This document shows, in pieces, positions 2,282 through 38,151 of a stretch of DNA of 38,151 bases. This DNA comes from a virus: IMG/VR virus record IMGVR_UViG_3300045988_161139. One strand, 5' to 3'. The notes under the pieces were generated by a model. That model was not told the DNA's origin and did no database searches. It saw nothing but the letters and a program-made list of their open reading frames with translations. The first letter of the stretch is position 1. Each line of letters opens with the position of its first letter. The translations under genes and the position numbers were made by a program.

Positions 2282-2348
2282 CAAGATAATTTTGTTAATA
2301 CAAGTATATTTTGATAGAATTTTTTTATGATATATAATAGATGTATAA

Positions 2349-2834: not shown

Positions 2835-2868
2835 AGTATTGCAAATATAATAGAAAATTCGATCAAAT

Positions 2869-3297
2869 ATGTTGACGGGACAAAATAAAATCAATTTAAT
2901 ATTAGATCACGTAGGCATTAAAGCCCCTACGTTTGCTAAACATGTCGGGGTTAAATATCAGCGGATATTAGATATTCAAAACGGAAAGGTTAAAAACATC
3001 TCTGCTGAGGTAGCAAGCCGCATTATAGACGTTTATCCACAGTTCAACATTGAATGGCTTCTCACCGGCGAAGGTGAGATGTTGAATTCCGAAACGAAAG
3101 AACCTAACTCAAACGAAGAAGATATGCAAATGAAAGAATTAATCGCAGCTTTCCGCGAGAACCGTGAGATGTTGGCCGAAGCGTTGGATCAGAACTCGCG
3201 GCTCATCGGCGTGATCGAGCGGATGCAGGGGATAGACCGCTCTGCGACAGGAGTTCAAAAATCCCCCCCCCACGTATTTCGCACAGAAACCGAGTAA
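2869..3297 (+). CDS. XRE-family HTH transcriptional regulator (cI-like repressor candidate)
   Basis: An N-terminal HTH region followed by the motif ...NIEWLLTGEGEML..., which recurs in Bacteroidota phage-repressor-like HTH proteins. It is positioned between the switch region and the integrase-side accessory genes. Confidence 0.6.
   Translation: MLTGQNKINLILDHVGIKAPTFAKHVGVKYQRILDIQNGKVKNISAEVASRIIDVYPQFNIEWLLTGEGEMLNSETKEPNSNEEDMQMKELIAAFRENREMLAEALDQNSRLIGVIERMQGIDRSATGVQKSPPHVFRTETE
3263..3271. repeat. Poly-C homopolymer (9 C) inside the 3' end of the regulator gene
   Basis: aaaatcccccccccacg read directly. Confidence 0.9.
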
Positions 3298-3430
3298 ATT
3301 TCGATTGCAATAAGGAATACGATAAAATCATTTATTTATACAACAAACGGGTAAAACCGAGTTGAAATAGCCGTAGCAACGAAATAAAAAGTTATTATTT
3401 TTGTTGTACTACAATTAAAACACGTTTATC

Positions 3431-3871
3431 ATGTCTTATCCGGTATTAGCGATTGCAAACAAGTTGTTAGCCAGTGCTACCGACTACGACGGCGGAGAAC
3501 TCATGTCGAACATGAAGCTGCAAAAGATGCTTTACTATCAGCAAGGGTATCATTTAGCCGCATTCGGTACTCCCCTGTTCGATGAAGACATTGAAGCGTG
3601 GATGTACGGGCCTGTTGTTCCGTGCGTCTACGACCACTTCAAGAAGTTCGGCGCGGGCGGTATCGAACCCGAAACGGATCAACCTCTCATGCTATCGGAC
3701 GAGGAAGAATCGCTCTTTCAAGATGTGTTTACCGCCTATATTAATTTTTCAGCCTTAGGGCTTATGGAAAAAACGCACGGCGAAACTCCGTGGCGCACGA
3801 CTCCTACGGGTGTCGGTCATGTGATCGGCAAGGATAAGATGCGGGATTTTTTCCACAAGCAGTTAGCGTAA
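3431..3871 (+). CDS. Panacea-domain (DUF4065, SocA/PanA-like) protein, putative antitoxin
   Basis: MSNMKLQKMLYYQQGYHLAAFGTPLFDEDIEAWMYGPVVPCVYDHFKKFG matches the DUF4065/Panacea core (KLQKLLYY ... AW..GPV ... Y). Confidence 0.75.
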   Translation: MSYPVLAIANKLLASATDYDGGELMSNMKLQKMLYYQQGYHLAAFGTPLFDEDIEAWMYGPVVPCVYDHFKKFGAGGIEPETDQPLMLSDEEESLFQDVFTAYINFSALGLMEKTHGETPWRTTPTGVGHVIGKDKMRDFFHKQLA

Positions 3872-3886
3872 CCGGCTGCAACGACA

Positions 3887-4267
3887 ATGAGCGTCAAGAA
3901 ACAAAGTCCGGCACAAAGCTACATCGGGAAGGATAGCCGCATATCCTTCGGATTTGGCCACCTTCACGATGTGAGCTATACCGATTGCAAACAGCCGACT
4001 TTCTTCATCGATTTCTTACAACGGTTGAAGAAGATATGCTGTGTCGATTGGAATACCGTCAATACATCCCAACGGCACGCATTCGGATGGGAGAAGATTT
4101 CGATCGGTTCCATTAAGAGAAAAAAATTGAATTTGACACGCGACGTCGGGTTTCTGATGGCTTTTCGTGCCACTGGAGACAATCATGTATTTTTGGGATT
4201 CCGGGAAGGAAATGTGTTTCAAGTGGTATTTGTCGAATCAAGTTTCGGCGACATTTACAATCATTGA
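3887..4267 (+). CDS. Hypothetical 126-aa protein, candidate toxin partner of the Panacea antitoxin
   Basis: It starts 16 nt after the Panacea gene on the same strand. I recognise no family for it. Confidence 0.5.
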   Translation: MSVKKQSPAQSYIGKDSRISFGFGHLHDVSYTDCKQPTFFIDFLQRLKKICCVDWNTVNTSQRHAFGWEKISIGSIKRKKLNLTRDVGFLMAFRATGDNHVFLGFREGNVFQVVFVESSFGDIYNH

Positions 4268-4317
4268 TACTGAGATTCCGATTTTGATTTTTTTGCCACC
4301 CGTATTGCAATATAATC

Positions 4318-4839
4318 TTGTATAACATGAAATATAATTGCATTATAATTTATTTGCTCCTATTTTTGATTTCGATTAGTGCGATCAGTTGCGAAAAGGA
4401 GACTGTCATCACTATATCCAACGAATCCTTCGAAGAGTATTTTCCGTATCATGAAAATGGGAAATCATATAATGAACCTTTTCGATATGTAGGAGAAGAT
4501 AAGAATGGCGACCCTATATGGAGATCATTATATGAAATTGAGGAATCCATCAATCGGTGTACAATTGAATTTAGTAATAAAAATCATTACATAAATTTTG
4601 GAGAAATTCCGTCTCTGTCCATATTACAAGAATGGAATTATTTAAAAGAGCGACCGCAAGACTATGGAGTTGACGCATTCCATATTGTTGCCTATTTCAC
4701 CTTTACCTATGAAAATATAGATGGGAATTATTATATAAAGAATTACCACTACACTACAGATGCTCGCATATTCGGAATGAACTATCTTGAATTCGATTCT
4801 TCGAACGGAAAAATCGGCAGGTGGGTTCATAAAAAGTAA
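4318..4839 (+). CDS. Lipoprotein (likely start MKYNCIII..., 4327), moron
   Basis: Signal peptide plus lipobox ...LLLFLISISAISCEKE. Strongly AT-rich codon usage, unlike the rest of the genome. Confidence 0.55.
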   Translation: MYNMKYNCIIIYLLLFLISISAISCEKETVITISNESFEEYFPYHENGKSYNEPFRYVGEDKNGDPIWRSLYEIEESINRCTIEFSNKNHYINFGEIPSLSILQEWNYLKERPQDYGVDAFHIVAYFTFTYENIDGNYYIKNYHYTTDARIFGMNYLEFDSSNGKIGRWVHKK

Positions 4840-4900
4840 TGTGATAGATGTGGATGATGGGGTTGTAATGCTATTAATCTAAACTTTAAAACTATAAGAT

Positions 4901-5296
4901 ATGGAAGATTTTTTTGTAATGATGCTAATTGTATGGGCGGTGGGTATCTTGTCAATTATATTATTCTTCAAATTATGGAGGATGACAAATGACATTAAGA
5001 AGATTTGCATTTCTGTGGCAAAAGAACCGCAACGAGGCCGAAATTGGATGGTTTCTACGATGCTGATGAAAGGCGAGTCTCCAGAAATGATAAGTAAATA
5101 TTTAATTGAATCTTTTTCAGAGGATATTCATAGACTATACAAAGTTGGATATACGGAACAGGCGTTTACCCAATATGCAAACGCAAAAATCACCCAATAT
5201 AAAAAGTTATATGAGTTAATTGGAATAGAGATGCCAGATAGTATACAAAATGCAAATACAATCACAAAAGTAAAAACCATTTTTCATCAAGGATGA
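4901..5296 (+). CDS. Small membrane-anchored protein; paralogue of 15721..15972
   Basis: N-terminal MEDFFVMMLIVWAVGILSIILFFKLWRMTNDIKK aligns with MADIYAIIGIVMLIFGILQIVLFFKLWGMTNDVRR of the 15721 gene. Confidence 0.55.
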   Translation: MEDFFVMMLIVWAVGILSIILFFKLWRMTNDIKKICISVAKEPQRGRNWMVSTMLMKGESPEMISKYLIESFSEDIHRLYKVGYTEQAFTQYANAKITQYKKLYELIGIEMPDSIQNANTITKVKTIFHQG

Positions 5297-5357
5297 TAAC
5301 GCTTGTCTCGACTCTCCGGCAGGCTTATCCCTTGCGATAGCATTTTAACAATACCTC

Positions 5358-5945
5358 ATGGAACTGCAACCCATCCAAAGCAAGATATACGAAATCCGGG
5401 GCCAGCGTGTGATGCTGGACTTCGATCTGGCGGAACTCTACCAAGTGGAGACCCGAACACTCAAACAGGCGGTACGACGCAATATTGAGCGTTTCGAAGG
5501 CGACGATTTTATGTTTGAACTCTCGGATAACGAGTATAACGCATTGAAAGACAGAATAAGGTCACAAAATGTGATCTTAGAAATCGACGGACGAGGCAAG
5601 TATCCCAAATATCCGCCCTTTGCCTTTACGGAAATGGGGGTTGCAATGCTTTCGAGCGTGTTGCGCAGTGAGACAGCCATACGGGTAAATAGGGCTATTA
5701 TGCGGGCTTTCGTAGCGATGCGCAACTACATCATGACCACGACGACAGTAACGGCAGAATTGGCCGAAATTCGGGCACGGCTGGCGTTGTTGGAGCAGAC
5801 AGGCAAGGACAACGCCGAAGCGGTCAGCGATCTATCGGAGGATATGCGTAAGGAGCTCGACAATATCTACGAGGCAATTGCGGCACTCTCCGTGAAGGTT
5901 CCGCAGGCACGCAAATCTCCTCAGCCAATCGGGTTCAAAAAATAG
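5358..5945 (+). CDS. ORF6N-domain protein (antirepressor/Bro-N-like)
   Basis: IRGQRVMLDFDLAELYQVETRTLKQAVRRNIERFEGDDFMFELS is the ORF6N signature. The C-terminal half is coiled-coil. Confidence 0.75.
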   Translation: MELQPIQSKIYEIRGQRVMLDFDLAELYQVETRTLKQAVRRNIERFEGDDFMFELSDNEYNALKDRIRSQNVILEIDGRGKYPKYPPFAFTEMGVAMLSSVLRSETAIRVNRAIMRAFVAMRNYIMTTTTVTAELAEIRARLALLEQTGKDNAEAVSDLSEDMRKELDNIYEAIAALSVKVPQARKSPQPIGFKK

Positions 5946-6078
5946 ACAGATTATACTTGATCGATGCAGATGTTATCCTAATGTTGTTCGAATATTTTCG
6001 AATAAATATCGTAAACATTTAGTAAACAGCAAATAAAATAATTGTTTATAACAGCCTTCTAATGAAGAACTCGGACAA
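5946..6078. other. AT-rich intergenic region upstream of the recombinase; candidate attP/regulatory region
   Basis: 133 nt of low GC, with TTCGAAtattTTCGAA and TGTTTATAACA symmetric elements. Its position relative to int (between the int side and the lysis/tail end) matches a lambda-like attP location. This is inference only. Confidence 0.3.
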
Positions 6079-6741
6079 ATGAATATTCTGGGCAACCCTT
6101 TCAGAAACTTGCGCCTCGAAACACCCGCGCCGACGGCCAAACGAGCCATCTCCGCGGAGTCGATACAGCAGATAATCGACTTGCCGCCACTCGCCAACGA
6201 ACGCGCTCGGATGGCGCGGGATTGCTTCCTCCTGTCGTTCGCACTGATGGGGATGAACAGCGCCGATCTGCTGACCTGCCCGCCGGCCAGGAAGGACGAA
6301 ATCGTGTATTTCCGGCAAAAAACCGCATCCCGCCGCACGGACCGTGCAGAAATGCACGTTCGGATAGAGCCGTGCGTCAGCCCTTTGATCGCTCGCTATT
6401 CGGATAAGACGGGGAAACGATTGCTTCACTTCTACCTCCGCTACAAAGATCGCGTGTCATTCAACAAAGCGATCAACAAAGGCCTGAAAGATGTCGGCGA
6501 GGCGATAGGCGTCGATGGCCTGACGTTCTACGCTGCGCGGCACTCCTGGGCAACCATAGCGCGGACTCCCCGAGAGGAGGGCGGAGCCGGACTGGACAAA
6601 TACGTGATTCATGAAGCGTTGAATCACGTTGACACATCCATGAAAGTCACCGATATTTACCTCGTGAAAAACTGGCGTGTCATTTTCGACGCCAACAAAG
6701 CCGTAATGAATCTTTTCGATTGGAGCGGAATCGGGAAATAA
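6079..6741 (+). CDS. Tyrosine site-specific recombinase/integrase (catalytic domain only, 220 aa)
   Basis: ...YAARHSWATIAR... (box II H-x-x-R) and ...HEALNHVDTSMKVTDIYLV (H...Y) are catalytic motifs of tyrosine recombinases. No N-terminal core-binding domain is encoded upstream. Confidence 0.7.
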   Translation: MNILGNPFRNLRLETPAPTAKRAISAESIQQIIDLPPLANERARMARDCFLLSFALMGMNSADLLTCPPARKDEIVYFRQKTASRRTDRAEMHVRIEPCVSPLIARYSDKTGKRLLHFYLRYKDRVSFNKAINKGLKDVGEAIGVDGLTFYAARHSWATIARTPREEGGAGLDKYVIHEALNHVDTSMKVTDIYLVKNWRVIFDANKAVMNLFDWSGIGK

Positions 6742-13075: not shown

Positions 13076-15663
13076 CTTTTGCGTCCGGCGTAGCGCGCCG
13101 TCTCATCCTGCACCTTGACCCGCCGCTGACCGTTGTTTATATCCCTGACCGTCACGACAGGGTTCGGAAGCCGGCGCATCACGCGCTCGAACATCTGTTC
13201 CATCTGACGCATCCCCGAACTCTTCTCCGGAAGATGCCGCGTCGGAATGGCGTTGCCGCCGCTCGACACGTTCATCATCGAGAGCACCGGCCCCCAATCC
13301 ACGACCGCACGGGCCGTCATCACGGCCTCGCCGTTGGACAGCCGCGCAGGGATGCTGTCGCTCGTACCCGTGCCGGGGCCGGTCACAAGACCGCCGCGGG
13401 CAAATTTCGGCGTAGCCGGTTTCTCGGCTTGATTCAAAACTTGGTACGCCTGCGCAATAGCGGAAAGGACAGCCGCAATCGCAGCCGCCATTTTGATCGG
13501 ACGCGCGGCATTGCCTGCAATCGCTTCGGAGATCGCCAACGCCGTATTGACACCGATATTGAACAGCGCCAGCAGTTTTGCGAACTCGGCAAACTCCGCA
13601 TTATCTTCGGCCAGCGTATTGAACAGATTGGCTGCCGCACCGCTGATCGTCGACATCGCCGTCAATGTGGTGTTTAGCTGATATTCAGCCTGCTCTTTGG
13701 TAATTCTTGCCGTCTCCAATTTCGCATCCTGAACCGCCATTTCACCATTGAGAACGGCCGTCTGGTATGCAACATCCGAATCATACAGAGATTCTTTCGT
13801 TGCTTCGTCCATACTCAGCAGTGCCTGGTATTTATCCATAGCGATGCGAAGCTCCTCCTGCGCGATCGCCCGCTGGGCGGAGAGACGTTTCCCATTATCC
13901 TCGCTTTTCAGGTCGGAATAGTTCTCGTTCTTGACTTGCGCACGAGCCAGGGCATCCATCTGGGCATCCATACCGAGGCGGGCCCTGATGCGCGCTTCCT
14001 CACGCGCCAACTCCTTGCGCAACGCCTCCTCGCTGTATTTTTCCTCGACGGATATTCGGTCTTTCTGATACTTTTCGTCCAGAGCCAATATCCGTTTGTT
14101 CAGCGTCTCTTTCTCTTGAAGGAGCCACGCCGCCTGCTCTCCTTCGGCGGTTTTCAGCAGGATGTCGATCTCGCTGATTCGCTTTTCTGCCGATTTTTTC
14201 GCAACCGAGTTTTGCTCAGAAATGCTTTTTAACTCGCTCTCTTTCGTCTTGGTACGCATCTGCTGGACGAGTTGGAAATAATCCTTCTCCGCTTTGAGGG
14301 CCGCATCTTTCGCTTCCTTGATGGCTTTGGCGCGGGTTTTGGCGGTTTGGGTTGCTTTTGCATCGGTTTCATTCAGACGTTCTTGCAATTCCCGCAGAGC
14401 GGAATTTTCCTGAGCATTTAGCCGTTTTAACCCCGCTTCCATTTCTGCAAGTTTGTTGTTTGTCTCAACTGAATTCTTAGTCGGTTCGGCACTTAATTTC
14501 GCGATCTCGAAATCCAACTGGGCGATGTCCTTTTTGATTCTGAACATTTCCCGCGTCTTGTCTATTGCTTCCTGTGCATATTTTGCACGTTCCGCATCCG
14601 AGTTTTTCAATTTATCGTTCGATTTCAGTCGCGCCTCCGCTATTTCCGCTTCGAGTTCTGCAATCCTTACGACGCCTTCCCTGTATTTGATGTTTCGTTC
14701 TTCCTGTTTAGCGGCTAACTCGTTGAATGTTTTCTGTAATTTATCGGCTTCTTCTCTCTGGCTTGTAAAAAGCCTAGGAGTCTTATAAGGGCCTACCTTC
14801 ACAAAATCCTTCAGATAGATTTTTAACTTTGTCCAGAAAATCTTAAATTTCGATGTCGTATTGACGATCGATTCGCCCATCCTGTCTATGGTATTGGTGT
14901 AGGCTGCATTCCACGCATCGGCTGCGGACATCGCCCTCTGATATTTATAAAACAACTCTTCGTTCTCCTGAATACGGGCATTTACTTCCCGAATGGAAAA
15001 CGATAGCGCCTGATAGCTGGCATAGATAGCAGCAATAGCAGCTCCGATAGGTGTAGCAATGAATGCCGCCATCTGTTTAACAAGAGACCCAATGGCACCT
15101 GCTGCACCCTTAATGACATTCGTAATGCCTCCCGCATTTTGAGCCGTTTGCGCAAGTTGTAGCAAGAAATTGTTTCCAACAGGAAGCGTGTTCTGAATGG
15201 CATTCTCATAATTGCCGACATTCGAACGATAATCGCCGATTGCGGCCTCCGCCTCTTTAACGGCGTCACGCTGGGCTTTGATATGATCTGCTAACGCTTT
15301 CCCGCTGGCGCTTTCGCGTTCGGCGGCCGATAACCTTCCATACTGCGCAATAAGGCCGTTCAGATTCGCGCGTAGTTGATTCAAAGACCCGTCAAGCTCT
15401 TTTTCGACCTTAATGTTATTTTGAATCTCTTTTTCATACTGTCTTTGTTCATCCGTCAAGGCTTTTGTGGTAGACTTCAATTCTAATTGTGCCTTTTTAT
15501 AATCGGACAGCGAAATCTGGCCGGTCTCGTACTCTTTTTTGAGGTCGGACAAAATCTTCTTATTGTCTTCAATCGCTTCGTTGGCTTTTACCCAACCCTG
15601 AACGAGTTCCTTATAATTGAAGCGAATATTAATAATCTTATCGATCGAATCTTGTGTAGCCAT
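13072..15663 (-). CDS. Tail tape measure protein
   Basis: 863 aa. Long coiled-coil/alpha-helical K/E/Q/A-rich repeats and a Gly-rich C-terminus (GGLVTGPGTGTSDSIP). Position fits a tail module. Confidence 0.8.
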   Translation of the reverse strand: MATQDSIDKIINIRFNYKELVQGWVKANEAIEDNKKILSDLKKEYETGQISLSDYKKAQLELKSTTKALTDEQRQYEKEIQNNIKVEKELDGSLNQLRANLNGLIAQYGRLSAAERESASGKALADHIKAQRDAVKEAEAAIGDYRSNVGNYENAIQNTLPVGNNFLLQLAQTAQNAGGITNVIKGAAGAIGSLVKQMAAFIATPIGAAIAAIYASYQALSFSIREVNARIQENEELFYKYQRAMSAADAWNAAYTNTIDRMGESIVNTTSKFKIFWTKLKIYLKDFVKVGPYKTPRLFTSQREEADKLQKTFNELAAKQEERNIKYREGVVRIAELEAEIAEARLKSNDKLKNSDAERAKYAQEAIDKTREMFRIKKDIAQLDFEIAKLSAEPTKNSVETNNKLAEMEAGLKRLNAQENSALRELQERLNETDAKATQTAKTRAKAIKEAKDAALKAEKDYFQLVQQMRTKTKESELKSISEQNSVAKKSAEKRISEIDILLKTAEGEQAAWLLQEKETLNKRILALDEKYQKDRISVEEKYSEEALRKELAREEARIRARLGMDAQMDALARAQVKNENYSDLKSEDNGKRLSAQRAIAQEELRIAMDKYQALLSMDEATKESLYDSDVAYQTAVLNGEMAVQDAKLETARITKEQAEYQLNTTLTAMSTISGAAANLFNTLAEDNAEFAEFAKLLALFNIGVNTALAISEAIAGNAARPIKMAAAIAAVLSAIAQAYQVLNQAEKPATPKFARGGLVTGPGTGTSDSIPARLSNGEAVMTARAVVDWGPVLSMMNVSSGGNAIPTRHLPEKSSGMRQMEQMFERVMRRLPNPVVTVRDINNGQRRVKVQDETARYAGRKR

Positions 15664-15720
15664 AATTTTATAGTTTCTTGTTTTTGCGTATCTTTGTTCT
15701 CAACCAAATCTCAAATCATC

Positions 15721-15972
15721 ATGGCTGACATCTATGCAATCATCGGAATCGTAATGCTGATATTCGGCATTCTGCAAATCGTTCTTTTCTTCAAACTCTG
15801 GGGAATGACGAACGATGTACGGCGACTTACGGAACATTTTCTGAAATCAGATGAAAATGAGAATATAAACCTTCCTTTTAAAGAAAAAGATGGATCCGGC
15901 GATCTCATAGTAGGCATCGTGATTACTCTTATCGGTATTTTAATCATTGCTATTCTATTTTTTACAGCTTGA
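15721..15972 (+). CDS. Small two-TM membrane protein on the opposite strand within the tail module; paralogue of 4901..5296
   Basis: MADIYAIIGIVMLIFGILQIVLFFKLWGMTNDVRRLTEHFLK...LIVGIVITLIGILIIAILFFTA. Internal Met of track ORF 15487..15972. The upstream part of that ORF is antisense to the tape measure gene. Confidence 0.55.
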   Translation: MADIYAIIGIVMLIFGILQIVLFFKLWGMTNDVRRLTEHFLKSDENENINLPFKEKDGSGDLIVGIVITLIGILIIAILFFTA

Positions 15973-18031
15973 TCAATTTGCACTCGCATATACCGTCCTC
16001 ACCGGTCGTGACGGAGTAGATGGCGAAATAGCATCCGTACACGTCGAGGTAAACCCGCCGCGTATAGTCGAGATTGCAGATGTCGGCCACGGTCAGTTTG
16101 ACGTAGACCGTAATCATGCGGAACTTTTTCAGGATCCGCTGGTAGGCTGCATACCGTTGCGCCACGATACCCTCCGACCCGCCGAAATACATCGTGCGGG
16201 GGAACAGGCCGTGCCTGTAACGACCTACCGTACCGTTTCCGTCTTCAATCGTCGTATTCACATCGGCAAGAATACGGGCAGAAGGAGCAGAGTAATTTAC
16301 CTCCTTTGCTCCGTTGACTGTCTGTTCCTCATAGCAAGGCACAAAAGCGAATGGCCTATCAGGGCGATCCGGATTCCAACCTGTTCTATTGGTCGAAGCC
16401 GAGAAATCCAACGATACCAATTCGTTCTCCCGCTCGATGTTCTCGTTGTCGATGGAGATGATGCCCTGCGTGTTCAACATCTCGGCGTCCTCGTCGTTGT
16501 CGTAGTCGAGCGTGTTGGTCTGGGCATAATCCCCCATCGTGAACTCCGTCCCCTCCGGCCGCCAGATTTCGCCCCGATCGTTCAGAATCACTTTGCGGCT
16601 CCAATCCTGAATCGTTGCGTCGAGATGACTGTCGACGATTCGTCTGTCGGTTTGCGTGCTCGGCGTCCGGTTGTCTCCCGAATCGACGATGCGATAGTCG
16701 TAGTCGATCGTGTCCGTCGAATTATAGAACTGATCGGGCGACATCATGTGGATCGTATTATTATCCGAACTGTCCGGATAGGCGAAAAGTCCGGCCATTG
16801 TCATCAATGCCGACAGGAACTCCGCGTGCGTCATATCCGGCAGATTCTCGGCTATCGGAAACGGAGAGGGGAATTGGATGTCGTCGAAATGGGGCGTGAT
16901 GATGAATCGGGCAGCGATCGTTTGCTCCTGTTCGACTGGATAGAGGTATTTTATCTGCCAGTAAACATAATCCGTGTCTTGGACGTCGATTTCCAAATCT
17001 TTCACGATATCGGGACCGATTCCAAATGTCGCTAAGCCATTGCTTATTGTACCTCTACGTTCGAAAAGGAGTTTGCGAGTTTGGGACTCGTTGGTAGTGT
17101 TAACTCCGTAAAGAGCGATAGATGGTGATACATTTCCGAATTTATTCCCTTTAATTCCGACAGGGTTGTCGTCGTAACTTAAAATGGAAACTGAAATCTT
17201 TTCCAAATTTGAAACGTTGAAATTACGATAACGAGACCCCGTGTCACTCCCTGTTCCCGTATCAATTTCAATATCCCACAACCCCCGTTTGTCGGCCGTG
17301 ATATTCTCCTGCTTGAATTCGATATTATTGATGTATTGTAACGTGCTATATAAATATCCGGAACTTGCCTCGAACCGATCCGAATACCAACTGTCGGGCC
17401 CCGAGTTTTTCGACACGAGCGGAACGATCATCGGATGTTTGTCACTGGTTTGGCTCAAACGGGTTATATTCTCTATCGTGATACCGTGATATTTCTGTAT
17501 GGCATCCAAGATCGCGGATACTTGTACGGACGGATGCGAATAATTGATATTACGTCCTGCCCCGAAATCAATCTGGATAAATCCTGCCAATGCTGTATCG
17601 GAGGGCAATGCCCACGGCACCTCTTTGTTCCACTCGACATAATCCGCTCCTGCCACCTCGATGATCTGCTCGCGCAGATCGCGCAGCGAAGCGTCGAACA
17701 ACGGCTGGAAGTTGTCGATGTTGCCCCACACGAGTGTGATGTTGATCGTGTCGGTTACGTCCGTAACCATCGCATACCCCCGCGTGAAGACCGGAAAGCC
17801 GCCGAGGTAGTACGCTGCCGAATGCTTCCCGTATGCCGCCGAATCGTCCAAGATGTCGATGCGGTCGATCAGACCGAAGGCCTTGCGGTTGCGGGGCGTC
17901 AGCGGCAGATTGATCTCCGCGCTGCGGTTGCTCTGGATCACGTCGAGATCGTTGAAGACCGGCGACTGGAAGATCAGCGACGGCGTATCTTCCAGATCGC
18001 ACAACTGACCGTTTATGTAGAGCTCCTTCGT
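15962..18031 (-). CDS. Large virion structural protein (approximately 689 aa from MTKELYING...), function unknown
   Basis: Track ORF 15962..18187. The first 52 codons overlap the upstream gene and are Arg-rich. A start at 18031 gives an ATGA overlap with the stop of 18031..19002. Confidence 0.55.
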   Translation of the reverse strand, partial: TKELYINGQLCDLEDTPSLIFQSPVFNDLDVIQSNRSAEINLPLTPRNRKAFGLIDRIDILDDSAAYGKHSAAYYLGGFPVFTRGYAMVTDVTDTINITLVWGNIDNFQPLFDASLRDLREQIIEVAGADYVEWNKEVPWALPSDTALAGFIQIDFGAGRNINYSHPSVQVSAILDAIQKYHGITIENITRLSQTSDKHPMIVPLVSKNSGPDSWYSDRFEASSGYLYSTLQYINNIEFKQENITADKRGLWDIEIDTGTGSDTGSRYRNFNVSNLEKISVSILSYDDNPVGIKGNKFGNVSPSIALYGVNTTNESQTRKLLFERRGTISNGLATFGIGPDIVKDLEIDVQDTDYVYWQIKYLYPVEQEQTIAARFIITPHFDDIQFPSPFPIAENLPDMTHAEFLSALMTMAGLFAYPDSSDNNTIHMMSPDQFYNSTDTIDYDYRIVDSGDNRTPSTQTDRRIVDSHLDATIQDWSRKVILNDRGEIWRPEGTEFTMGDYAQTNTLDYDNDEDAEMLNTQGIISIDNENIERENELVSLDFSASTNRTGWNPDRPDRPFAFVPCYEEQTVNGAKEVNYSAPSARILADVNTTIEDGNGTVGRYRHGLFPRTMYFGGSEGIVAQRYAAYQRILKKFRMITVYVKLTVADICNLDYTRRVYLDVYGCYFAIYSVTTGEDGICECKLIKL

Positions 18032-28967: not shown

Positions 28968-29549
28968 CTATTTCACCAATTCGAATTCGTAAACCACCAC
29001 CCACGGGTTCCGATCCCACGTTCCGCGGCCGGATACCTTGTCAATCAGCGAAGCGAAGGCTTCGCGGTGATCGTCAAAATAGAAGCCCTCTTCTCGGCGC
29101 ATATCTTCAAAGTAAAATTTGCCAATTTGGGGCAAATACCGAATTCCCTCCCTAAGGCAATCAGCCTCCGAAATATCATACAACCGCTCGCACTTGATTC
29201 CGGTGATGCGGATTTGATGCGGCATCAACTCGGCCTTAGTAAGCATCTTGTTCGTCCAACCAGATGGTTTATCATCATCTTCCCAAGCATACGGATTGAC
29301 ACAGTTGGAGTAGTCGAAAATATCTTGATATCTCTGCGCCACGGCCACGACCTCGCCGACCTTGTAGGACAGCTTTTTCTCAGCACATACATCGCCACTA
29401 CGCCCGATGATTTGGACGTATCCTGCAAAAATTCGTACCTGTACGTCGGAGGTGGACTTGATATTAATCAGCATCATCGCCATGGTCTTTCGACCCTCGA
29501 TGACCGCCTGCGTCAAGCCGTAGCGGTCGTTGAACATAATCTTTTTCAT
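28968..29549 (-). CDS. ASCH-domain-like protein
   Basis: The N-terminal ...LTQAVIEGRKTMAMMLI and the C-terminal ...NPWVVVYEFELVK resemble ASCH-domain signatures. Moderate confidence. Confidence 0.45.
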   Translation of the reverse strand: MKKIMFNDRYGLTQAVIEGRKTMAMMLINIKSTSDVQVRIFAGYVQIIGRSGDVCAEKKLSYKVGEVVAVAQRYQDIFDYSNCVNPYAWEDDDKPSGWTNKMLTKAELMPHQIRITGIKCERLYDISEADCLREGIRYLPQIGKFYFEDMRREEGFYFDDHREAFASLIDKVSGRGTWDRNPWVVVYEFELVK

Positions 29550-29599
29550 CCTTTATAGTTTTTGAATTCCACACTCTTGAAAATCGCCCGATGATTGCA

Positions 29600-30330
29600 T
29601 CAGCGGGCCAACCGTTTTTGCTCATTTGTCGGCTCGACGTTATTATCGAAATCCCTGTATGGCTGGGCGAACGGGAGTACTCCCAATTTGCGCAAAGCAT
29701 TGATTCGCTCCAATGCGTCATCGACATCTTGAATCAGGCAGTAGACAAAAATCCGATAAGGCTTAACACCTCGACGTCCCAATTCCTTCACACACTTGGC
29801 TACCGGTTCCAGCTGTGACATCCGGTCACAGGCGAATCGTACCTGATTCATCCATTTCACGCGGGACAACAAGTCGAGGATGAAGGCGTCGTCGCAAGCC
29901 TGACGTGCATCCAGACCTTGATTGAAATCTACGGAGATACCCATACGGACGATCTCCTCGATCTGTTCCAACCCGAAGTCCGACGCCAGCACATTGTTGT
30001 CGAGCAGCACGGCGCGCCGTTTGTCGCCGATGAATTCACGAAGCGGCGATGCCGGACGGATCGAGCCCTCCTTATGCGGAACGATGCACCACGGGCAGCG
30101 GTTCACGCATCCCCGCGTCAGAAAGCCATAGGCTTCGTCCACTCCGTACAGCGAATAATCCGGACAGCAATGTTCGATCTCGTCGGGCAGCGTCGTCGTG
30201 TAGTCTTTATAGCCTGTGCCGGCACGTACGACCTCGCAAGGGTAATAATCCGGACAGTCGGGCGGAAAGCCCATCATCTGGGCCACATATCGGGGATTCA
30301 GTCGGGAACCCTTCCCAGTTCGAGACGGAT
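29600..30330 (-). CDS. CX3CX2C (radical-SAM-type) cysteine-motif domain, read through without a stop from the 3' end of the broken C5-methyltransferase
   Basis: ...YGFLTRGCVNRCPWCIVPHKEG... shows C-x3-C-x2-C as in radical SAM / QueE / NrdG-like proteins. No canonical start codon lies between the methyltransferase motif X (GFPPD) and the cysteine motif. No clear GGE motif is visible. Confidence 0.45.
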
Positions 30331-31083
30331 GCGAAATCATGACGTCGTGGACGACTCCGCTCTTCCGCGTGGCTTGACTGGGTGGAAGACTGGAATTTAT
30401 AGCATCGTTGACCGTCGGCGTTGACAACAGCCCCATCCGCGTTGCAAGCGCGAGCGTCGGCCGAGCAGTCGCACCATCCGACAGGCTCCTGTTCACACGC
30501 CCGCTCCCGCAATCCGACGCGACCGGTGTCGGCAGTAGAGCCGGCGGCAATGGCTCCGAACCGCTCTTGCCATGAACTTTCAGCCCTTGCGTCACCACGG
30601 TGGGCAACAAACCATGTTCTGTATCGCAGGTGGGGAGCACCGACGCCAGCAGCTGGTATAAGGTACGCTTGCACCTCGTATCCTGCCGCCTCCAAATCAG
30701 CGCACACCTGCTCGAAAACCATTCCCTGCGACCAATTAACGATTCCGAGAACGTTCTCGCCCACGACCCAGCGCGGTCGAACAGTCCGAACAACTCCGAG
30801 CATTGCGGGCCAGAGGTAGCGGTCGTCGGCCGTACCCTTGCGTTTGCCCGCGAGGCTGAACGGCTGGCACGGGAAACCGCCGGTGAGCACGTCGATGCAG
30901 TCGCGCCAAACGGTAAAGTCTGTTGTTCGTATGTCTTCATATTTGTTCCGATTCGGGAAAATGATACTTCAATACGCGCCGGCAGAACGGGTCGATCTCG
31001 CAGTTGAAGACGTTCGTCCAGCCGGCCCACGCGGCCGCTAAGTCGAAGCCGCCGATGCCGCTGAATAGAGAACCGTGCGTCAT
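30207..31083 (-). pseudogene. DNA (cytosine-5)-methyltransferase split over three reading frames (two frameshifts)
   Basis: Frame A from the ATG at 31083: MTHGSLFSGIGGFDLAAAWAGW...KYHFPESEQI* (motif I). Frame B from 30937: YEDIRTTDF...LTGGFPCQPFS (motif IV)...VVGENVLGI (motif VI)...PHLRYRTWFVAHR (motif VIII). Frame C from about 30560: LLPTPVASD...RLNPRYVAQMMGFPPD (motifs IX/X). The first frameshift is a 1-nt difference in CAAATAT (plus ttt 30942..30944); deleting one A restores ...ESEQYEDIRTT. Confidence 0.7.
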
Positions 31084-32021
31084 TAGTACTCCACCGCTGC
31101 CCTGCGATCGATGAAGAAATGAATACCCGGTGCGCATTCGCTCCACCTGTTATCGTCGAAATCCGGAACTTCCACAGTAGCACCGACAGTGTAGACGAAG
31201 TCTTTGTCATGGTCGGAACGAACGGTATCCTCAGTTGCCTTGGTGCCGTCCATGTTCTGAATCTCCATGACGTATGCTTTATCGCAACGGCATTTGTGTC
31301 CCGTTGCCGAACTGCGCCGTGCATCTTCCGGAATTCGTAATTTTACGATATGCCCAGAGGCTTTTTTCCAACCGATGAAACTACCCTCAGTCGGACATGA
31401 TAGATAACATCCCTTGGCATCGCGTAGGTTGGCACCGCGCAGGTCGGCGCCGTACAGGTTGGCACCGCGCAGGTCGGCACCGCGCAGGTCGGCGCCGTAC
31501 AGGTTGGCACCGCACAGGTCGGCACAGCGCAGGTCGGCATCGCGCAGGTTGGCACCGCGCAGGTCGGCATCGCTCAGGTTGGCATCGCGCAGGTTGGCAT
31601 CGCGCAGGTTGGCATCGTACAGGTCGGCACCGCGCAGGTTGGCATCGCGCAGGTTGGCACCGCACAGGTCGGCGCCGTACAGGTTGGCACCGCACAGGTC
31701 GGCACAGCGCAGGTCGGCATCGCGCAGGTTGGCACCGCTCAGGTTGGCACTGCGCAGGTTGGCATCGCACAGGTTGGCACCGCACAGGTTGGCACCGCGC
31801 AGGTCGGCACCGCGCAGGTTGGCACCGCGCAGGTTGGCACCGCACAGGTCGGCATCGCACAGGTTGGCATCGCGCAGGTCGGCATCGCGCAGGTTGGCAC
31901 CGCGCCTAATAGCGTCCAAAACCGTTTCGGTGATTGTGTTTCCCTCTTTCGTGTATTCAAATACGACCGAGCCAGTCCAACGGTTGCGGATTTCGATTTT
32001 AATCTGTTTCGTTGATTCCAT
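31083..32021 (-). CDS. Pentapeptide-repeat protein (about 40 A(D/N)LxG-type repeats) with a distinct C-terminal domain
   Basis: ...GANLRDADLRDANLCDADLCGANLRGANLRGADL... throughout residues 40-200. The C-terminal 110 aa is non-repetitive (CYLSCPTEGSFIGW...ECAPGIHFF...). Its stop overlaps the Dcm ATG as TAATG. Confidence 0.8.
   Translation of the reverse strand: MESTKQIKIEIRNRWTGSVVFEYTKEGNTITETVLDAIRRGANLRDADLRDANLCDADLCGANLRGANLRGADLRGANLCGANLCDANLRSANLSGANLRDADLRCADLCGANLYGADLCGANLRDANLRGADLYDANLRDANLRDANLSDADLRGANLRDADLRCADLCGANLYGADLRGADLRGANLYGADLRGANLRDAKGCYLSCPTEGSFIGWKKASGHIVKLRIPEDARRSSATGHKCRCDKAYVMEIQNMDGTKATEDTVRSDHDKDFVYTVGATVEVPDFDDNRWSECAPGIHFFIDRRAAVEY
31397..31910. repeat. 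Near-perfect 15-bp tandem array (gcaggt(c/t)ggca(c/t)cgc) underlying the pentapeptide repeats
   Basis: Read directly. Dozens of units differ only at 2-3 positions. This generates spurious long ORFs in all frames on both strands. Confidence 0.9.
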
Positions 32022-32394
32022 TGTGGTAAATTTGTTTATCCGGATTCATGTATTGATTTGCGGCAGCAATAGCATCTTCGAGCGTGCGAACTACAACATA
32101 CTTGTTCCCCGCAGTCTCAAAGGACTCTTGCCATCTTCTCTGTACGGCACTCTGACGACTGCCCTTTCCCTGTGTCTTGAACTCCAAACCGAGCGATCCG
32201 TACTTGCCCCTCGGAACGAGCAGAAGCAAATCCGCAGCACCGGCCGTCATACCTTCGGCCTTCATGATTGCGGCTTCGGTCTTACTCCGGAGTCCGCCGT
32301 TCGGGACACTCGTCAGACATAGTGCATAGGACGGATATTGCATCCGGAACCAGCGGACGAACGACTGTTGTATACGAGATTCAACGTGCCTCAT
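31999..32394 (-). CDS. VRR-NUC domain nuclease
   Basis: ...VRWFRMQYPSYALCLTSVPNGGLRSKTEAAIMKAEGMTAGAADLLLLVPRGKYGSLGLEFKTQGKGSRQSAVQRRWQESFETAGNKYVVVRTLEDAIAA matches the VRR-NUC pattern (hvPNgg.r...G..aGvpDl.l...g....iE.K...G..s..Q..w). Confidence 0.75.
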   Translation of the reverse strand: MRHVESRIQQSFVRWFRMQYPSYALCLTSVPNGGLRSKTEAAIMKAEGMTAGAADLLLLVPRGKYGSLGLEFKTQGKGSRQSAVQRRWQESFETAGNKYVVVRTLEDAIAAANQYMNPDKQIYHNGINETD

Positions 32395-32978
32395 TTGCGC
32401 AGACTGTTTCCATTGAACGCAACACGATAGCACAGGTATTTAATACGGTCATATATCCGGTCACCATAGCGTTCCTTGATGCCTTCACCCGACAGATTTG
32501 AGGAAGCTATAACCATCCGATCGGGGTTATCCTGCACCTTGTTCACGATCTCGACTACCACATTCCGGCGTGTACCGAATTCGACGCGATCCACCTCTAC
32601 ACCTATATCGTCCAATGCGATGAACTTGCGTTTTAATACCTCGTCGATACATACGTCCTGCGCTCCGCAGTCCACGACCGTAACGATTCGATTAGCGAAC
32701 TTGCGCAACAGCATGGGAATGGCGTAGCGGGTTATCAGGGATTTTCCGCGTCCGCAATTACCGAACAGCAAAAGTCCCTTACCGTTGTTATCCGACAACC
32801 ACGCTGCAACCTTGTCGTATTCGGGAAGCCATACCAATCGTTCTCCCATTGCCGACAGCACAGTAACCAGCGCGTTTTTCAATTCCGTCCGCGCATCGGG
32901 TATCCGAAACCGGAAGCGTGCGCATGGAACCGGATTACCCTCAGTTTGTAGTTGTTTGAGTATTTCTTCGTAAGACAT
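32391..32978 (-). CDS. DnaC/IstB-like AAA+ ATPase (helicase loader)
   Basis: Walker A LLLFGNCGRGKSLIT; Walker B-like KFIALDDIG. Size and position follow a replication initiator. Confidence 0.7.
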   Translation of the reverse strand: MSYEEILKQLQTEGNPVPCARFRFRIPDARTELKNALVTVLSAMGERLVWLPEYDKVAAWLSDNNGKGLLLFGNCGRGKSLITRYAIPMLLRKFANRIVTVVDCGAQDVCIDEVLKRKFIALDDIGVEVDRVEFGTRRNVVVEIVNKVQDNPDRMVIASSNLSGEGIKERYGDRIYDRIKYLCYRVAFNGNSLRK

Positions 32979-32980
32979 AT

Positions 32981-33844
32981 TCAGAATTCATCATAATGTT
33001 GAGTCGGTTTTGCATGGTAGGTCGTAGCCGGATGCCGAGTGTTCGAACGGGGCAACGACGTTTCATTACGCCGACGCGCCCAATTCAGAAATGTCAGATA
33101 GGCCGAACGATTGCGTTTCAGCAAGGGTTCGTAGTTATGCATCGCGCGCAATAGGTCGCGGATGAAGTCAAGAGCATAAGCCTCTTTTAAAGCCGAGAAT
33201 TGCGCCTCGGAAAAAGGCTCTTTCATTTTCGCGACTCGCGGTGCATTTTCCGAAATCCATTGTTGAAACTCCAAGAACTCGCGGGAGGGGGTGCCGCGGA
33301 ACTGGGGGAGGGTGTTGGAGGAGTCAGTTACCTCTGCCTTCTCCGAGAAGGGCGGTAGTACGACTATCTCCCCATTAGGGGGATTATAGGGGGTAATATT
33401 ATTCTTGTCTAGTCTATCTTCTATACAAGAAGTATCGCCTTCGTTTTGGCTTCGTTTTTGGCTTCGTTTTTGGCTCCGTTTTTGGCTCATGTTTTGGCTC
33501 ATGTTTTGGCTCATATTTAAGCCAATTGAACCATTTGAAACGATGCCTGATTCGGGATTCGGTTCTTCAACGAATGAAAAAGCTGTGCGGTTCCCCTTCC
33601 CGCGTCCTCCCGTTATGATATGTAACAGACCCGCTTGCTCCAATCGGTTTTTTGCTCTCGAAATTGCATTGCGTGACGCCCCTACATTCTCGGACAGCCT
33701 TCTGTCGGAATGCGTGAAGCTATTCGGCCAGCCTAACCGATTCGCTTGTTCTACAAGGTAGAAGTAAAGCCTCGATTCACAGCAGCCAAATTGCCACGTT
33801 GCATCCAATTGCCAAAATTTGCGTATCAGGTCTATATAGCTCAT
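32981..33844 (-). CDS. Replication initiation / primosomal protein with an N-terminal winged-helix domain (start at the internal Met MSYIDLIRKF...)
   Basis: ...LYFYLVEQANRLGWPNSFTHSDRRLSENVGASRNAISRAKNRLEQAGLLHIITGGRGKGNRTAF is a typical phage replication-protein wHTH. It contains a low-complexity NMSQNMSQNMSQKRSQKRSQKRSQ linker. Confidence 0.6.
   Translation of the reverse strand: MSYIDLIRKFWQLDATWQFGCCESRLYFYLVEQANRLGWPNSFTHSDRRLSENVGASRNAISRAKNRLEQAGLLHIITGGRGKGNRTAFSFVEEPNPESGIVSNGSIGLNMSQNMSQNMSQKRSQKRSQKRSQNEGDTSCIEDRLDKNNITPYNPPNGEIVVLPPFSEKAEVTDSSNTLPQFRGTPSREFLEFQQWISENAPRVAKMKEPFSEAQFSALKEAYALDFIRDLLRAMHNYEPLLKRNRSAYLTFLNWARRRNETSLPRSNTRHPATTYHAKPTQHYDEF
33438..33515. repeat. 12-bp in-frame tandem repeats (ttttggct(c/t)(a/c)(t/g)g) within the replication protein gene
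   Basis: ttttggcttcgtttttggcttcgtttttggctccgtttttggctcatgttttggctcatgttttggctcat read directly. Confidence 0.85.
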
Positions 33845-34209
33845 AATCGCATCCTCTCTTTCTCTAAACTTATCATCGTGCGAAGGTTGTCGCATTGGTG
33901 CTTGCACGCCGCATTGATCCGATCCAGCCACTTTTCAAGGGCATTCAGCTCGGAAGACGCACTGCCGATCAGTTTGTTCGCAAGCGACGGGGAAAGGCTG
34001 AGAATAGTCTCTTTCTCGTCGTGAAACAGCTTGGCCACAGCTGCATCGCGCATTCCGACCACCTCGCTCAGCAACGCCCCGCTGCGAGCATAATATACAC
34101 CCAGTTGATCCAGCCGCCCCACCATCGAATCGATGTCGGAAAAAGTCGTGCATTCAAGAAGATTCTGGATGTCTCGCGCCTCCCTGCGTATCTGTTCGAT
34201 CCTTGTCAT
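33841..34209 (-). CDS. Hypothetical protein
   Basis: 122-aa ORF, helical with coiled-coil character. Confidence 0.4.
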   Translation of the reverse strand: MTRIEQIRREARDIQNLLECTTFSDIDSMVGRLDQLGVYYARSGALLSEVVGMRDAAVAKLFHDEKETILSLSPSLANKLIGSASSELNALEKWLDRINAACKHQCDNLRTMISLEKERMRL

Positions 34210-34360
34210 GACGTTTGTTTATTTTCTTCAATAACAACCTTCCGCGGCGTAACGCATCCCATTCCTTTGCGGTCAGCAACGTATGCCCGCGGATGCGGGA
34301 CAGGACGCGGAGGATGCGGAGCGCTTCCCGCGCCTCCGCATCGGTAATCCGCATATCCAT
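34154..34360 (-). CDS. Hypothetical small basic protein
   Basis: 68-aa ORF. It overlaps the downstream gene by 56 nt, so one of the two starts is uncertain. Confidence 0.3.
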   Translation of the reverse strand: MDMRITDAEAREALRILRVLSRIRGHTLLTAKEWDALRRGRLLLKKINKRHDKDRTDTQGGARHPESS

Positions 34361-34362
34361 CG

Positions 34363-34659
34363 TCAGAAGGGAAGATCATCCGTATTATCCGCTACGGGCA
34401 AATCGGAGACTTGATCCGGCGTAGGTTCCGCAGGACGGAAGATAACTGACTTGCCTCGGCCGACATACGTGCGCGCGTCTTTTCGTTCGCGTTCCTCTTT
34501 GCTCTGACGGATGAATACGCAGTGCGTATTCTCGTACTGATCCGGCTGGCGAAGCTCCGAAACGCATATCGAAATGTACTTCTTGCCGTTTTCGGCGACG
34601 AAAATTTTGTCTCTGGGAATATCGCTCACGCAGAGCGATACATTGATTAAATCTGCCAT
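34363..34659 (-). CDS. Hypothetical protein (possible DNA-binding)
   Basis: 98-aa ORF with 3-nt spacing to its neighbours: MADLINVSLCVSDIPRDKIFVAENGKKYISICVSE... Confidence 0.4.
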   Translation of the reverse strand: MADLINVSLCVSDIPRDKIFVAENGKKYISICVSELRQPDQYENTHCVFIRQSKEERERKDARTYVGRGKSVIFRPAEPTPDQVSDLPVADNTDDLPF

Positions 34660-37781: not shown

Positions 37782-38151
37782 TCATAGCAACATCTGTGTG
37801 CCTAAATACTTTTTTACTCGTTTATTACTCGTTTCGGCATATTTCGGATCGATCTCATACCCCACGAATCGGCGTCCCAGTTTGGCAGCCATTGCACACT
37901 CCGTTCCGCTTCCTGCGAAGGGTACCACCACGAGTGCACCGGGACGTGTCGTGACCTGAATCAGATAACTGGTGATCGCCTCGCCTTTGACTGTGTCGTG
38001 CCCGTAGTGTTTCGATGCGCCGGAATCTTGCGGAAACTGCAATACGTCGGTCGACCGTTCGGGAAGATTGAACGGCCTCCGCAACTCCTCGTAGTCCCTC
38101 CGCAACTCCTCGTAGTCCCTCCGCAACTCCTCGTAGTCCCTCCGCAACTCC
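37782..38151 (-). CDS. DNA N6/N4 methyltransferase, C-terminal part (SAM-binding FxGxG half)
   Basis: The ORF begins (L/M)RRDYEELRRDYEELRRDYEELRRP..., followed by VVPFAGSGTECAMAAKLGRRFVGYEIDPKYAE, which is motif I (FxGSGT) of beta-class N6_N4 methyltransferases. Motif IV (DPPY) is in the 1..712 part, the order expected for the ParB-methyltransferase/beta class. Confidence 0.8.
   Translation of the reverse strand, partial: ELRRDYEELRRDYEELRRDYEELRRPFNLPERSTDVLQFPQDSGASKHYGHDTVKGEAITSYLIQVTTRPGALVVVPFAGSGTECAMAAKLGRRFVGYEIDPKYAETSNKRVKKYLGTQMLL
38078..38151. repeat. 21-bp tandem repeat, about 3.5 copies, in frame within the methyltransferase (encodes RRDYEEL heptads)
   Basis: ccgcaactcctcgtagtccct repeated to the end of the window. 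Same unit as positions 1..52. Confidence 0.9.

Follow-up and report, generated by a model that had tools for sequence, protein, structure and literature searches.

The question raised by this locus is what use a phage makes of a gene that runs a long tandem array of 15-bp repeats, read in frame, into a conserved C-terminal domain and that sits beside its replication genes. The window analysed here is the whole 38,151-nt stretch of IMG/VR record IMGVR_UViG_3300045988_161139, a siphovirus-type gut phage that is probably temperate and probably infects Alistipes. The gene in question, at 31083..32021 on the minus strand, is a complete open reading frame (ORF) for a 312-aa pentapeptide-repeat protein that ends in a DUF5758 domain. 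Our results show that its array is a genuine in-frame variable-number tandem repeat (VNTR) whose units are gained, lost, duplicated in blocks and homogenized by recombination or slippage, and comparison with the flanking sequence indicates that the array evolves faster than its surroundings. We propose that the product is an early-operon phage protein whose beta-helix binds a fast-evolving host or prophage protein, most likely an anti-phage defense component, while DUF5758 stays constant. This is the most probable of the explanations weighed below and is still tentative; the structural and evolutionary part of it is much firmer than the functional part. What lifts the locus above the routine is the combination of a repeat that changes fast at the population level, by recombination and only at its surface, with an early phage gene and a C-terminal domain found across viruses.

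The protein is made up of a 40-residue N-terminal cap (MESTKQIKIEIRNRWTGSVVFEY...AIRRG, 31902..32021), 32 clean pentapeptide units (residues 41-200, 31422..31901) and a 112-residue C-terminal part that contains the beta-rich DUF5758 domain (residues 207-309, 31095..31403), all encoded on the minus strand. Tandem Repeats Finder reports the 15-bp array as by far the strongest repeat of the window (31414..31905, 32.8 copies, 85% matches, no indels, score 641). The unit table and column statistics give 32 clean units in the coding register with one degenerate unit at either end, which agrees with the roughly 34 units counted in a preliminary description of the sequence; the 40 or so pentapeptides which that description also gave are too many. 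At the DNA level the unit is GCC-(A/G)AC-CTG-(C/T/A)(G/A)C-(G/T/A)(G/A)T and at the protein level A(D/N)L(R/C/Y/S)(G/D/C/S). The motif first proposed, A(D/N)LxG, is therefore too narrow, since the fifth residue is G in 20 of the 32 units, D in nine, C in two and S in one. The array had been called near-perfect as well, which is right in that the unit shows no variation at 9 of its 15 nucleotide positions and next to none at synonymous sites, but not in that there are 14 distinct nucleotide units with a mean pairwise identity of 85.6%. Nearly all of the differences between units are non-synonymous and fall on residues that face outward in a pentapeptide beta-helix, namely D/N at i-1, R/C/Y/S at i+1 and G/D/C/S at i+2. 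A higher-order duplication lies within the array at 31485..31738 (minus strand), where a 74-bp exact repeat has its copies at 31485..31558 and 31665..31738, an offset of 180 bp or 12 units. Unit identity peaks at the same offset (0.90, with six identical units) and off-diagonal BLAST matches are seen as well, which fits expansion of the window's array from the modal array of about 20 units found in its relatives. The array is mildly acidic (isoelectric point (pI) 4.6, net charge -6), and the whole protein has a pI of 5.27 with 49 acidic and 42 basic residues.

For comparison among relatives we gathered 182 related IMG/VR loci, of which 80 were kept, together with 13 genome loci and several contigs from the European Nucleotide Archive (ENA). 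The 82 loci with a readable array hold 70 distinct arrays of 3 to 42 units. In the close group, whose C-terminal domains are at least 89% identical, the arrays have 3-32 units with a mode of 19, and the window stands at the maximum; in a sister group at about 80% identity they have 7-42 units, and the proteins of the relatives range in length from 147 to more than 350 aa. Across 1,235 units, appreciable variation is limited to positions 4, 10, 11 and 14 and consists of transitions throughout, so that each unit has four two-state sites (A/G at position 4, C/T at 10, G/A at 11 and G/A at 14), while every other position is 92-100% fixed. At positions 4, 10 and 14 the minor allele makes up about 40-50%. 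All four sites alter outward-facing residues, of which there are three per unit. As units come and go and these four sites switch, closely related phages carry helices that differ in both length and surface. The net charge of the array ranges from -0.68 to +0.29 per unit across the 70 relatives, some of which are net basic.

Position 15 of the unit tells the two lineages apart. Units of the close group mostly end in T (737 of 799) and those of the sister group in A (399 of 436), so that the fifth codon alternates between GGT and GAT in the former and between GGA and GAA in the latter, with D or E, respectively, as the alternative residue. This lineage-specific fixation implies that units are homogenized within each lineage, that is, concerted evolution. 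The arrays also change where nothing around them does: in 9 of 17 locus pairs with identical 459-nt flanks the arrays differ, for example with 19 versus 21, 34 versus 42 and 12 versus 20 units. Unit-wise alignments show insertions and deletions of whole units and of blocks, with blocks at the 3' end shared. Between the window and L028, a locus whose flanks are 2 nt apart from its own, 25 units are identical, six differ (by 9 nt in total) and one unit is shifted. Together with the 12-unit internal duplication and the 3-42-unit range, the differing arrays between identical flanks bear out the recent expansion or ongoing recombination that the preliminary description had read from the window. Identical 19-unit arrays nevertheless recur in three separate metagenomes (L016, L024 and L027), and a 178-aa variant of the protein, P0072, is present in six contigs, which indicates that arrays are heritable. 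A diversity-generating retroelement was considered as the source of the variation and ruled out by the pattern of two-state transitions, which are not the adenine-specific substitutions relative to a template repeat that such an element would produce; no reverse transcriptase was seen among the window ORFs scanned, although the window was not searched exhaustively for one. Deamination of 5-methylcytosine made by the adjacent DNA-cytosine methyltransferase was considered as a possible source of the transition-only pattern; within the unit, however, only position 10 (and position 11 on the opposite strand) lies in a CpG. In two loci, L028 (1204..3330) and L018 (200..1585), the whole gene is tandemly duplicated. 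These duplications, which share the same junction, span the last 84 nt of the adjacent VRR-NUC gene and 147 nt downstream, and their two gene copies carry different arrays; each is either a real segmental duplication or a misassembly of mixed strains.

Both parts of the protein belong to catalogued families. The repeats match Pfam PF00805 (Pentapeptide) with 201.8 bits (cut-off 20.2; E 6.6e-61), and the C-terminal part matches PF19062 (DUF5758) with 126.2 bits against a cut-off of 26.9 (E 6.3e-37) over profile positions 3-105 of 105. The architecture that joins the two is already catalogued with its function uncharacterized, and the 312-aa protein is a new member of it; all of its PHROG matches are to families of unknown function. 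The window protein has every residue that is invariant in 117 DUF5758 sequences (P210, K219, R236, C244, R245, A249, Y277, G299 and H301), spread over a CP motif, a K, R-x-S, KCR, a Y and GIHFF. C209 and C296 are nearly invariant, and C209, C244, C296 and H301 may form a metal site. An AlphaFold model built from the 117-sequence alignment has a predicted local distance difference test score (pLDDT) of 84.3 overall and of 95-98 in the C-terminal domain. It shows the cap as a beta-hairpin (strands 20-25 and 28-33) and a short helix (34-39), followed across residues 41-203 by a regular beta-helix with one short strand per five residues, so that the array is predicted to form about eight coils of a right-handed four-sided beta-helix. 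Foldseek searches of the PDB with the model returned only pentapeptide-repeat proteins (Np275/276, HetL, designed solenoids, MfpA, QnrB1 and AlbG), with E-values from 3e-11 to 1e-6 for Np275/276, HetL, MfpA and QnrB1. A search of the PDB with the sequence of the C-terminal domain gave nothing meaningful (best E 0.22). The structure prediction called for in the preliminary description thus gave both a beta-helix and a confidently modelled beta-rich domain, and its identification of a pentapeptide-repeat protein with a separate C-terminal domain is upheld by the Pfam scores and by the match of the helix to solved structures. The profile search that it suggested for the last 110 residues led to PF19062, a family of unknown function that is neither structural nor host-targeting. 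Membership of the NCBIfam 'Alr5209 family' was rejected, as the score of 138 against a cut-off of 125 is reached only by summing three repeat stretches on a 113-residue model that is all repeat.

DUF5758 is a large group. A HMMER search with the C-terminal 110 aa recovered 3,950 representative clusters at 50% identity, comprising proteins of 125-430 aa, and the domain sits at the C-terminus in every one of them. It occurs in phages of Bacteroidota, Proteobacteria and Actinobacteria and has fold relatives in giant viruses, has no solved structure, and includes tractable members in Ralstonia phage BOESR1 and the cluster E mycobacteriophages. Among predicted viral structures (BFVD), the fold matches uncharacterized phage proteins and many giant-virus proteins with template-modelling (TM) scores of 0.7-0.8, and in these it comes after MORN, HEAT, RING or pentapeptide modules. 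Proteins of Klosneuvirus, Hyperionvirus, Mimivirus and Acidovorax phage ACP17 are thus alike in placing this C-terminal fold behind a repeat scaffold; these proteins differ from ours in the kind of N-terminal scaffold, are 12-39% identical and are all uncharacterized, and the giant viruses have eukaryotic hosts. About a quarter of 150 diverse DUF5758 representatives have runs of at least eight units drawn from a small lineage-specific unit alphabet. Their longest run is 17 units, in contrast with the window lineage, in which the longest arrays are seen (32 units in the window and up to 42 in its sister lineage). The window-type cap is 95-100% conserved among the group A relatives and rare in the wider family (1 of the 150 representatives). 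One 187-aa relative, P0117, has a DUF5758 domain 93% identical to that of the window yet a different N-terminus (MDLKKILDEHLLWLNGEGG...), of the ILxxHxxWL type, which is frequent elsewhere in the family and is also that of the proteins of phages L and CP-T1. A near-identical domain behind a different N-terminus points to swapping of N-terminal caps between near-identical genes.

In phage collections the best matches are gp9 of Ralstonia phage BOESR1 (53%), a Thiohalocapsa phage protein and proteins of about 150 cluster E mycobacteriophages (45%), annotated 'pentapeptide repeat protein'; identity to these DUF5758 homologues is 45-53% over 91-93% of the protein. BOESR1 gp9 and mycobacteriophage gp54-61 share the two-domain architecture and the invariant C-terminal residues with the window protein. 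They differ in their repeats: BOESR1 likewise carries a homogeneous array of 15-bp units (27.9 copies at 85%), whereas in the cluster E (Kostyavirus) members the repeats are degenerate and form no array at the DNA level, and length is constant in dozens of phages. Comparison of repeat number, which the preliminary description had put forward as a check, therefore gives two answers, a variable number in the window lineage and a fixed one with degenerate codons in the mycobacteriophage branch. One homologue lies in the early region, upstream of the RNA polymerase gene, of a T7-like Ralstonia phage, and that of the cluster E mycobacteriophages is the third gene of an early operon beside the repressor.

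The closest functional precedent is a phage protein of another subtype. Gp60 of Vibrio phage 24 (24_60) is a pentapeptide-repeat anti-defense protein directed against Sucellos, a RexAB-like abortive-infection system, and its deletion makes the phage much more sensitive to that system; all six escapers carried Y112R with N110N/N115D in the repeat, a region that had to be resolved by polymerase chain reaction (PCR) and Sanger sequencing, so that the deposited genome was corrected (bioRxiv 10.1101/2024.07.02.601686). These changes fit the conversion of A-N-L-Y-G-A-N-L to A-N-L-R-G-A-D-L and would be explained by replacement of a whole unit, since the step from Y to R takes two nucleotide substitutions and is accompanied by a synonymous change; this looks like recombination within the array. 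The residue classes involved (N/D and Y/R) are those that vary in the window lineage. Phage 24 carries the CP-T1 type of the gene, and this type, represented by phage 24 gp60, CP-T1 and orf232 of the P22-like Salmonella phages ST64T and L, resembles the window gene in combining a short cap, a homogeneous 15-bp A(D/N)L(R/Y/C)(G/D) array and a small C-terminal domain. Copy number is 12.7 in CP-T1 (at 94%) and 13.7 in phage L (at 88%), and the unit consensus of these arrays, GCCGACCTGCGCGGT, is identical to one unit of the window array. The genomes of L and ST64T, at more than 99.9% identity, differ at only two sites, and at one of these a single 15-bp unit of the pentapeptide gene is deleted (PMC8022706). 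In phage L the gene lies in the PL operon between ral and gene 17. On the other hand, the C-terminal domain of this type ('PDLTF...') is unrelated, with no Pfam family and no DUF5758 match, the N-terminus is ILxxHxxW-type, unlike that of the window, and the hosts are Gammaproteobacteria; the function has been demonstrated for phage 24 and is extended to the window by analogy. In Vibrio phage CP-T1 itself (L084, JQ177061.1) the gene, at 3956..4516, is unannotated, only short hypothetical ORFs overlapping it, and it lies directly downstream of two methylase genes and a TetR-like regulator. A looser parallel is the BACON-repeat protein of crAssphage, a gut Bacteroidota phage, in which repeat number varies between strains (PMC6949934). 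There each repeated unit is an entire domain of about 80-100 aa, and the protein is probably a virion or adhesion protein, in contrast with the 5-aa (15-bp) units of a cytoplasmic early protein here.

On the reading that we favor, the gene would be transcribed together with the replication genes and its product would act inside the cell, where the helix would offer a protein-binding surface toward a host or prophage defense component and the invariant DUF5758 domain would supply a constant activity or a constant partner. Recombination within the array could then be a fast route to new binding variants, as seems to be the case for 24_60 against Sucellos. If this role is correct, the family would offer a simple marker, readable from sequence, of arms races between gut phages and their hosts, namely an early gene with an array that changes faster than what surrounds it. 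A more general form of the idea, which we regard as rather unlikely, is that the array is a recombination-driven generator of diversity and DUF5758 a constant adaptor or effector, with varied scaffolds aimed at fast-evolving host immune proteins. Four two-state sites multiplied by a variable number of units would let a rigid beta-helix display a combinatorial repertoire of surfaces, which would be reshuffled within phage populations by unequal crossing-over and gene conversion, and the DUF5758 module would be common to phages and giant viruses behind pentapeptide, MORN or HEAT scaffolds. Such a system would be a viral counterpart of variable repeat receptors.

Several observations weigh against a variable binder. 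The analogy with the anti-Sucellos protein extends to the array only, as the C-terminal domain and the N-terminal type differ. PADLOC gave no match for the gene or its neighbors, NCBIfam gave no functional match for the protein, a literature search for 'DUF5758' found no papers, and the gene is placed in the replication module and in no recognized anti-defense island. The order of units shows no strong lag-4 (same-face) periodicity (|r| at most 0.14); this and the more than tenfold range in length are awkward for a shape-complementary surface and would suit a tolerant spacer equally well. The non-synonymous excess could also stem from structural constraint plus homogenization, with no diversifying selection. 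In addition, short reads underlie the assemblies from which array lengths were taken, at least 12 IMG/VR contigs end within the array, and some of the very short arrays (three units) may be collapsed. Taken to its limit, the last concern would mean that the length or unit order of the window array is wrong and that variation among relatives largely reflects collapsed or mis-joined short reads. We consider this very improbable, even though three 3-unit loci share flanks with loci of 19-21 units, many proteins from short-read assemblies show only 0-10 units, and the deposited genome of phage 24 itself needed Sanger correction. The exact 312-aa protein and the surrounding 10.6 kb were found at 99.99% identity in an ENA scaffold, so the array is exactly reproduced in a second record, and the longest exact repeat within it is 74 bp, with no repeated k-mer at k of 77 or more, which means that reads of about 100 nt can resolve it. 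L028 was assembled independently with a different 32-unit array, the same 19-unit array recurs in three separate metagenomes, unit types and orders differ in ways that collapse cannot create, and the Sanger-era genomes of L and ST64T differ by exactly one unit. A scan of genome contigs yielded metagenome-assembled genomes only, with no long-read isolate genome to settle array length. Arrays of this kind do cause short-read assemblies to break or collapse and make protein clusters appear more numerous than they are, a practical concern for virome catalogues.

A simple alternate explanation is that the array is a neutral VNTR in a tolerant spacer. The cap and DUF5758 would act in replication, recombination or host takeover, the helix would be a rigid rod of non-critical length, and variation in copy number and surface would arise as a side effect of slippage and unequal recombination in a homogeneous repeat, with no adaptive value. 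In keeping with this, the gene is the fourth in a conserved block of initiator, DnaC-like loader and VRR-NUC-like genes and overlaps the last of these, arrays of 3-42 units coexist with near-identical flanking domains, same-face periodicity is weak, and the fixed length and degenerate repeats of the mycobacteriophage member imply that hypervariability is not needed for function. Neutral homogenization should, however, push unit variants to loss or fixation, and the four non-synonymous sites stand at intermediate frequency against synonymous sites that are 92-99% fixed in both sub-lineages. The same alternation of D/N, R/Y/C and G/D/S recurs in unrelated phages of Ralstonia, Vibrio and Salmonella, and in the one tested case, phage 24, changes in the repeat gave a selectable phenotype. 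Moreover, in four loci (L099-L102) the gene, still overlapping an intact gene for a C-5 cytosine DNA methyltransferase (Dcm), follows a different replication module and so is not tied to the replication genes. On balance we consider the spacer unlikely, while giving it more weight than the remaining alternatives. A proposal at the DNA level, that the 15-bp repeats are iterons or another protein-binding array for the neighboring initiator and that coding is secondary, is the least credible of all. The array does lie 1 kb downstream of the initiator and helicase-loader genes, and lambda gene O is a known case of an origin that lies within a coding region. Against this stand the in-frame repeat with its strong protein signal, variation that follows the inward and outward residues of a beta-helix, and equivalent arrays that elsewhere are far from replication genes (the phage L origin is annotated in the O-like gene). 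A better candidate for origin iterons, comparable to those in lambda gene O, is a 12-bp repeat at 33439..33511 inside the initiator gene, which has about six copies at 88% matches and encodes MSQN/KRSQ repeats.

The preliminary description had instead proposed an anti-restriction or anti-defense DNA mimic like Qnr and MfpA, in which the beta-helix would imitate B-form DNA and block a restriction endonuclease or gyrase/topoisomerase IV. The anti-defense part of that proposal is plausible, as an array of the same type counters Sucellos and homologues lie in early or anti-defense regions; the mimicry is not supported by our data, and we think it improbable. The window protein does share with Qnr, MfpA and AlbG a right-handed four-sided beta-helix of similar diameter and significant Foldseek matches (E 1e-7 to 1e-6), its array is mildly acidic, the gene lies beside DNA-modification genes in the window and in CP-T1, and the sister gene in phage L follows the antirestriction gene ral. 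Yet the NCBIfam scores are far below the family cut-offs (Qnr 57.5 against 240, QnrB 71.2 against 460, MfpA 59.6 against 360), and the best structural matches are cyanobacterial and synthetic pentapeptide proteins, ahead of Qnr and MfpA. Those two families have a C-terminal helix for tail-to-tail dimerization and a fixed length of about 180-220 aa, whereas the window protein ends in a 105-aa beta-rich domain and its relatives vary in length. Topoisomerase-directed pentapeptide proteins are known to be of fixed size, in contrast with arrays of 3-42 units. Acidic mimics of the Ocr or ArdA type have a strongly and uniformly negative surface, unlike an array with a net charge of -6 in the window, a variable charge across the 70 relatives and a net basic one in some. 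A further possibility is a prophage defense or superinfection-exclusion sensor, in which the array would recognize components of competing phages, much like the repeat sensors of NLR-like bacterial immune proteins, and DUF5758 would be the effector that protects the lysogen. A variable repeat joined to a constant C-terminal domain has the right architecture, pentapeptide repeats serve as sensor modules in bacterial NACHT proteins and the Hailong system, and the phage is probably temperate. We doubt this explanation somewhat more strongly than mimicry, because the gene lies inside a lytic early/replication operon, overlapping both neighbors, and not in a moron position. It has no promoter-like site of its own, and a scan for terminator-like sites, whose settings are not adapted to Bacteroidota, found none on the minus strand in 29400..34400. 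Strictly lytic T7-like phages also carry homologues, the PADLOC search was negative, and no recognizable nuclease, pore or NADase features were seen in DUF5758.

The assignment of the window to a temperate siphovirus-type phage of Alistipes is based on genes for terminase, portal, major head protein and tape measure, a weak integrase match at 6079..6741, and two close homologues that are named in NCBI as Alistipes communis proteins and have a prophage context in those records. Upstream of the pentapeptide gene lie the replication initiator (32981..33931), the DnaC-like loader (32391..32978) and, last in the replication module, the VRR-NUC-like gene (31999..32433, minus strand), whose end overlaps the start of the pentapeptide gene by 23 nt; the order of these four genes is kept in most group A relatives. 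The VRR-NUC nuclease that the preliminary description placed next to the gene is therefore correct as to position and overlap but less secure as to identity, the Pfam match being weak (19.9 bits, 8.1e-4, below the 23.8 cut-off). The same product matches phrog_824, of unknown function, at 1.8e-37 and the endonuclease family phrog_93 at 4.3e-7. Downstream of the gene the arrangement is mosaic, with Dcm directly adjoining the stop codon in about 30 loci, at a distance of about 1 kb in others and missing from some.

In the window, the TAA stop (31085..31083) and the Dcm ATG (31083..31081) overlap as TAATG at 31081..31085 on the minus strand, as described earlier from the sequence, and the same junction is found in about 30 related loci and in L099-L102. 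The co-expression that had been read from it is moot here, as Dcm is a probable pseudogene in the window; the overlap with an intact Dcm is kept in many relatives. The remnant (30207..31083, minus strand) is split into frames 30937..31083 and 30207..30890, both of which match PF00145. An inserted A at GAACAA[A]TATGA, that is GAACAA[A]TATGAAGACAT (about 30938..30950), shifts the frame by +1 and ends translation after codon 48. In addition, relative to the intact 314-aa Dcm of L010 (compare 2138..3079), L043 (3333..4274) and L008, there is a deletion of about 740 bp with 30-nt microhomology, which takes out Dcm motifs IX-X, a complete gene for a Dam-like N6-methylase and roughly 75 codons from the start of a radical SAM gene; L010 and L043 retain all of these regions. 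The insertion site is indel-polymorphic, being in frame in about 33 loci, +1 in four and -1 in three. The radical SAM gene is truncated in the window and absent from most relatives. Pairing of the array with a radical SAM maturase was considered and rejected, as the relatives' protein has a weak Radical_SAM match and no SPASM domain, and a ribosomally synthesized and post-translationally modified peptide (RiPP) precursor of the CefA type, with Cys at every fifth residue, was rejected at 27.4 bits against a cut-off of 30.

Nested in Dcm is a +1-frame ORF of about 250 aa (MKTYEQQTLPFG...LLPTPVASD...LSPRYVAQMMGFPPDWT; 2253..3023 in L010), which is open in all relatives examined and in the window forms part of a 574-aa ORF at 29600..31324 on the minus strand. 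It starts at the Dcm indel hot spot and, although searches of Pfam and NCBIfam gave nothing, it resembles phrog_1008, 'DNA methyltransferase', at 8e-17; the frame could be a case of dual coding or a relic. Elsewhere in the window, two stretches of low G+C content (2001..6000 and 14001..16000, at 0.40-0.44 compared with 0.50-0.60 elsewhere) suggest that these segments are mosaic or recent acquisitions; the first of them adjoins the weak integrase match. Both ends of the window (1..55 and 38076..38151) carry the same perfect 21-bp tandem repeat (ACTCCTCGTAGTCCCTCCGCA), which suggests a circular or terminally redundant contig that was broken inside this second tandem repeat.

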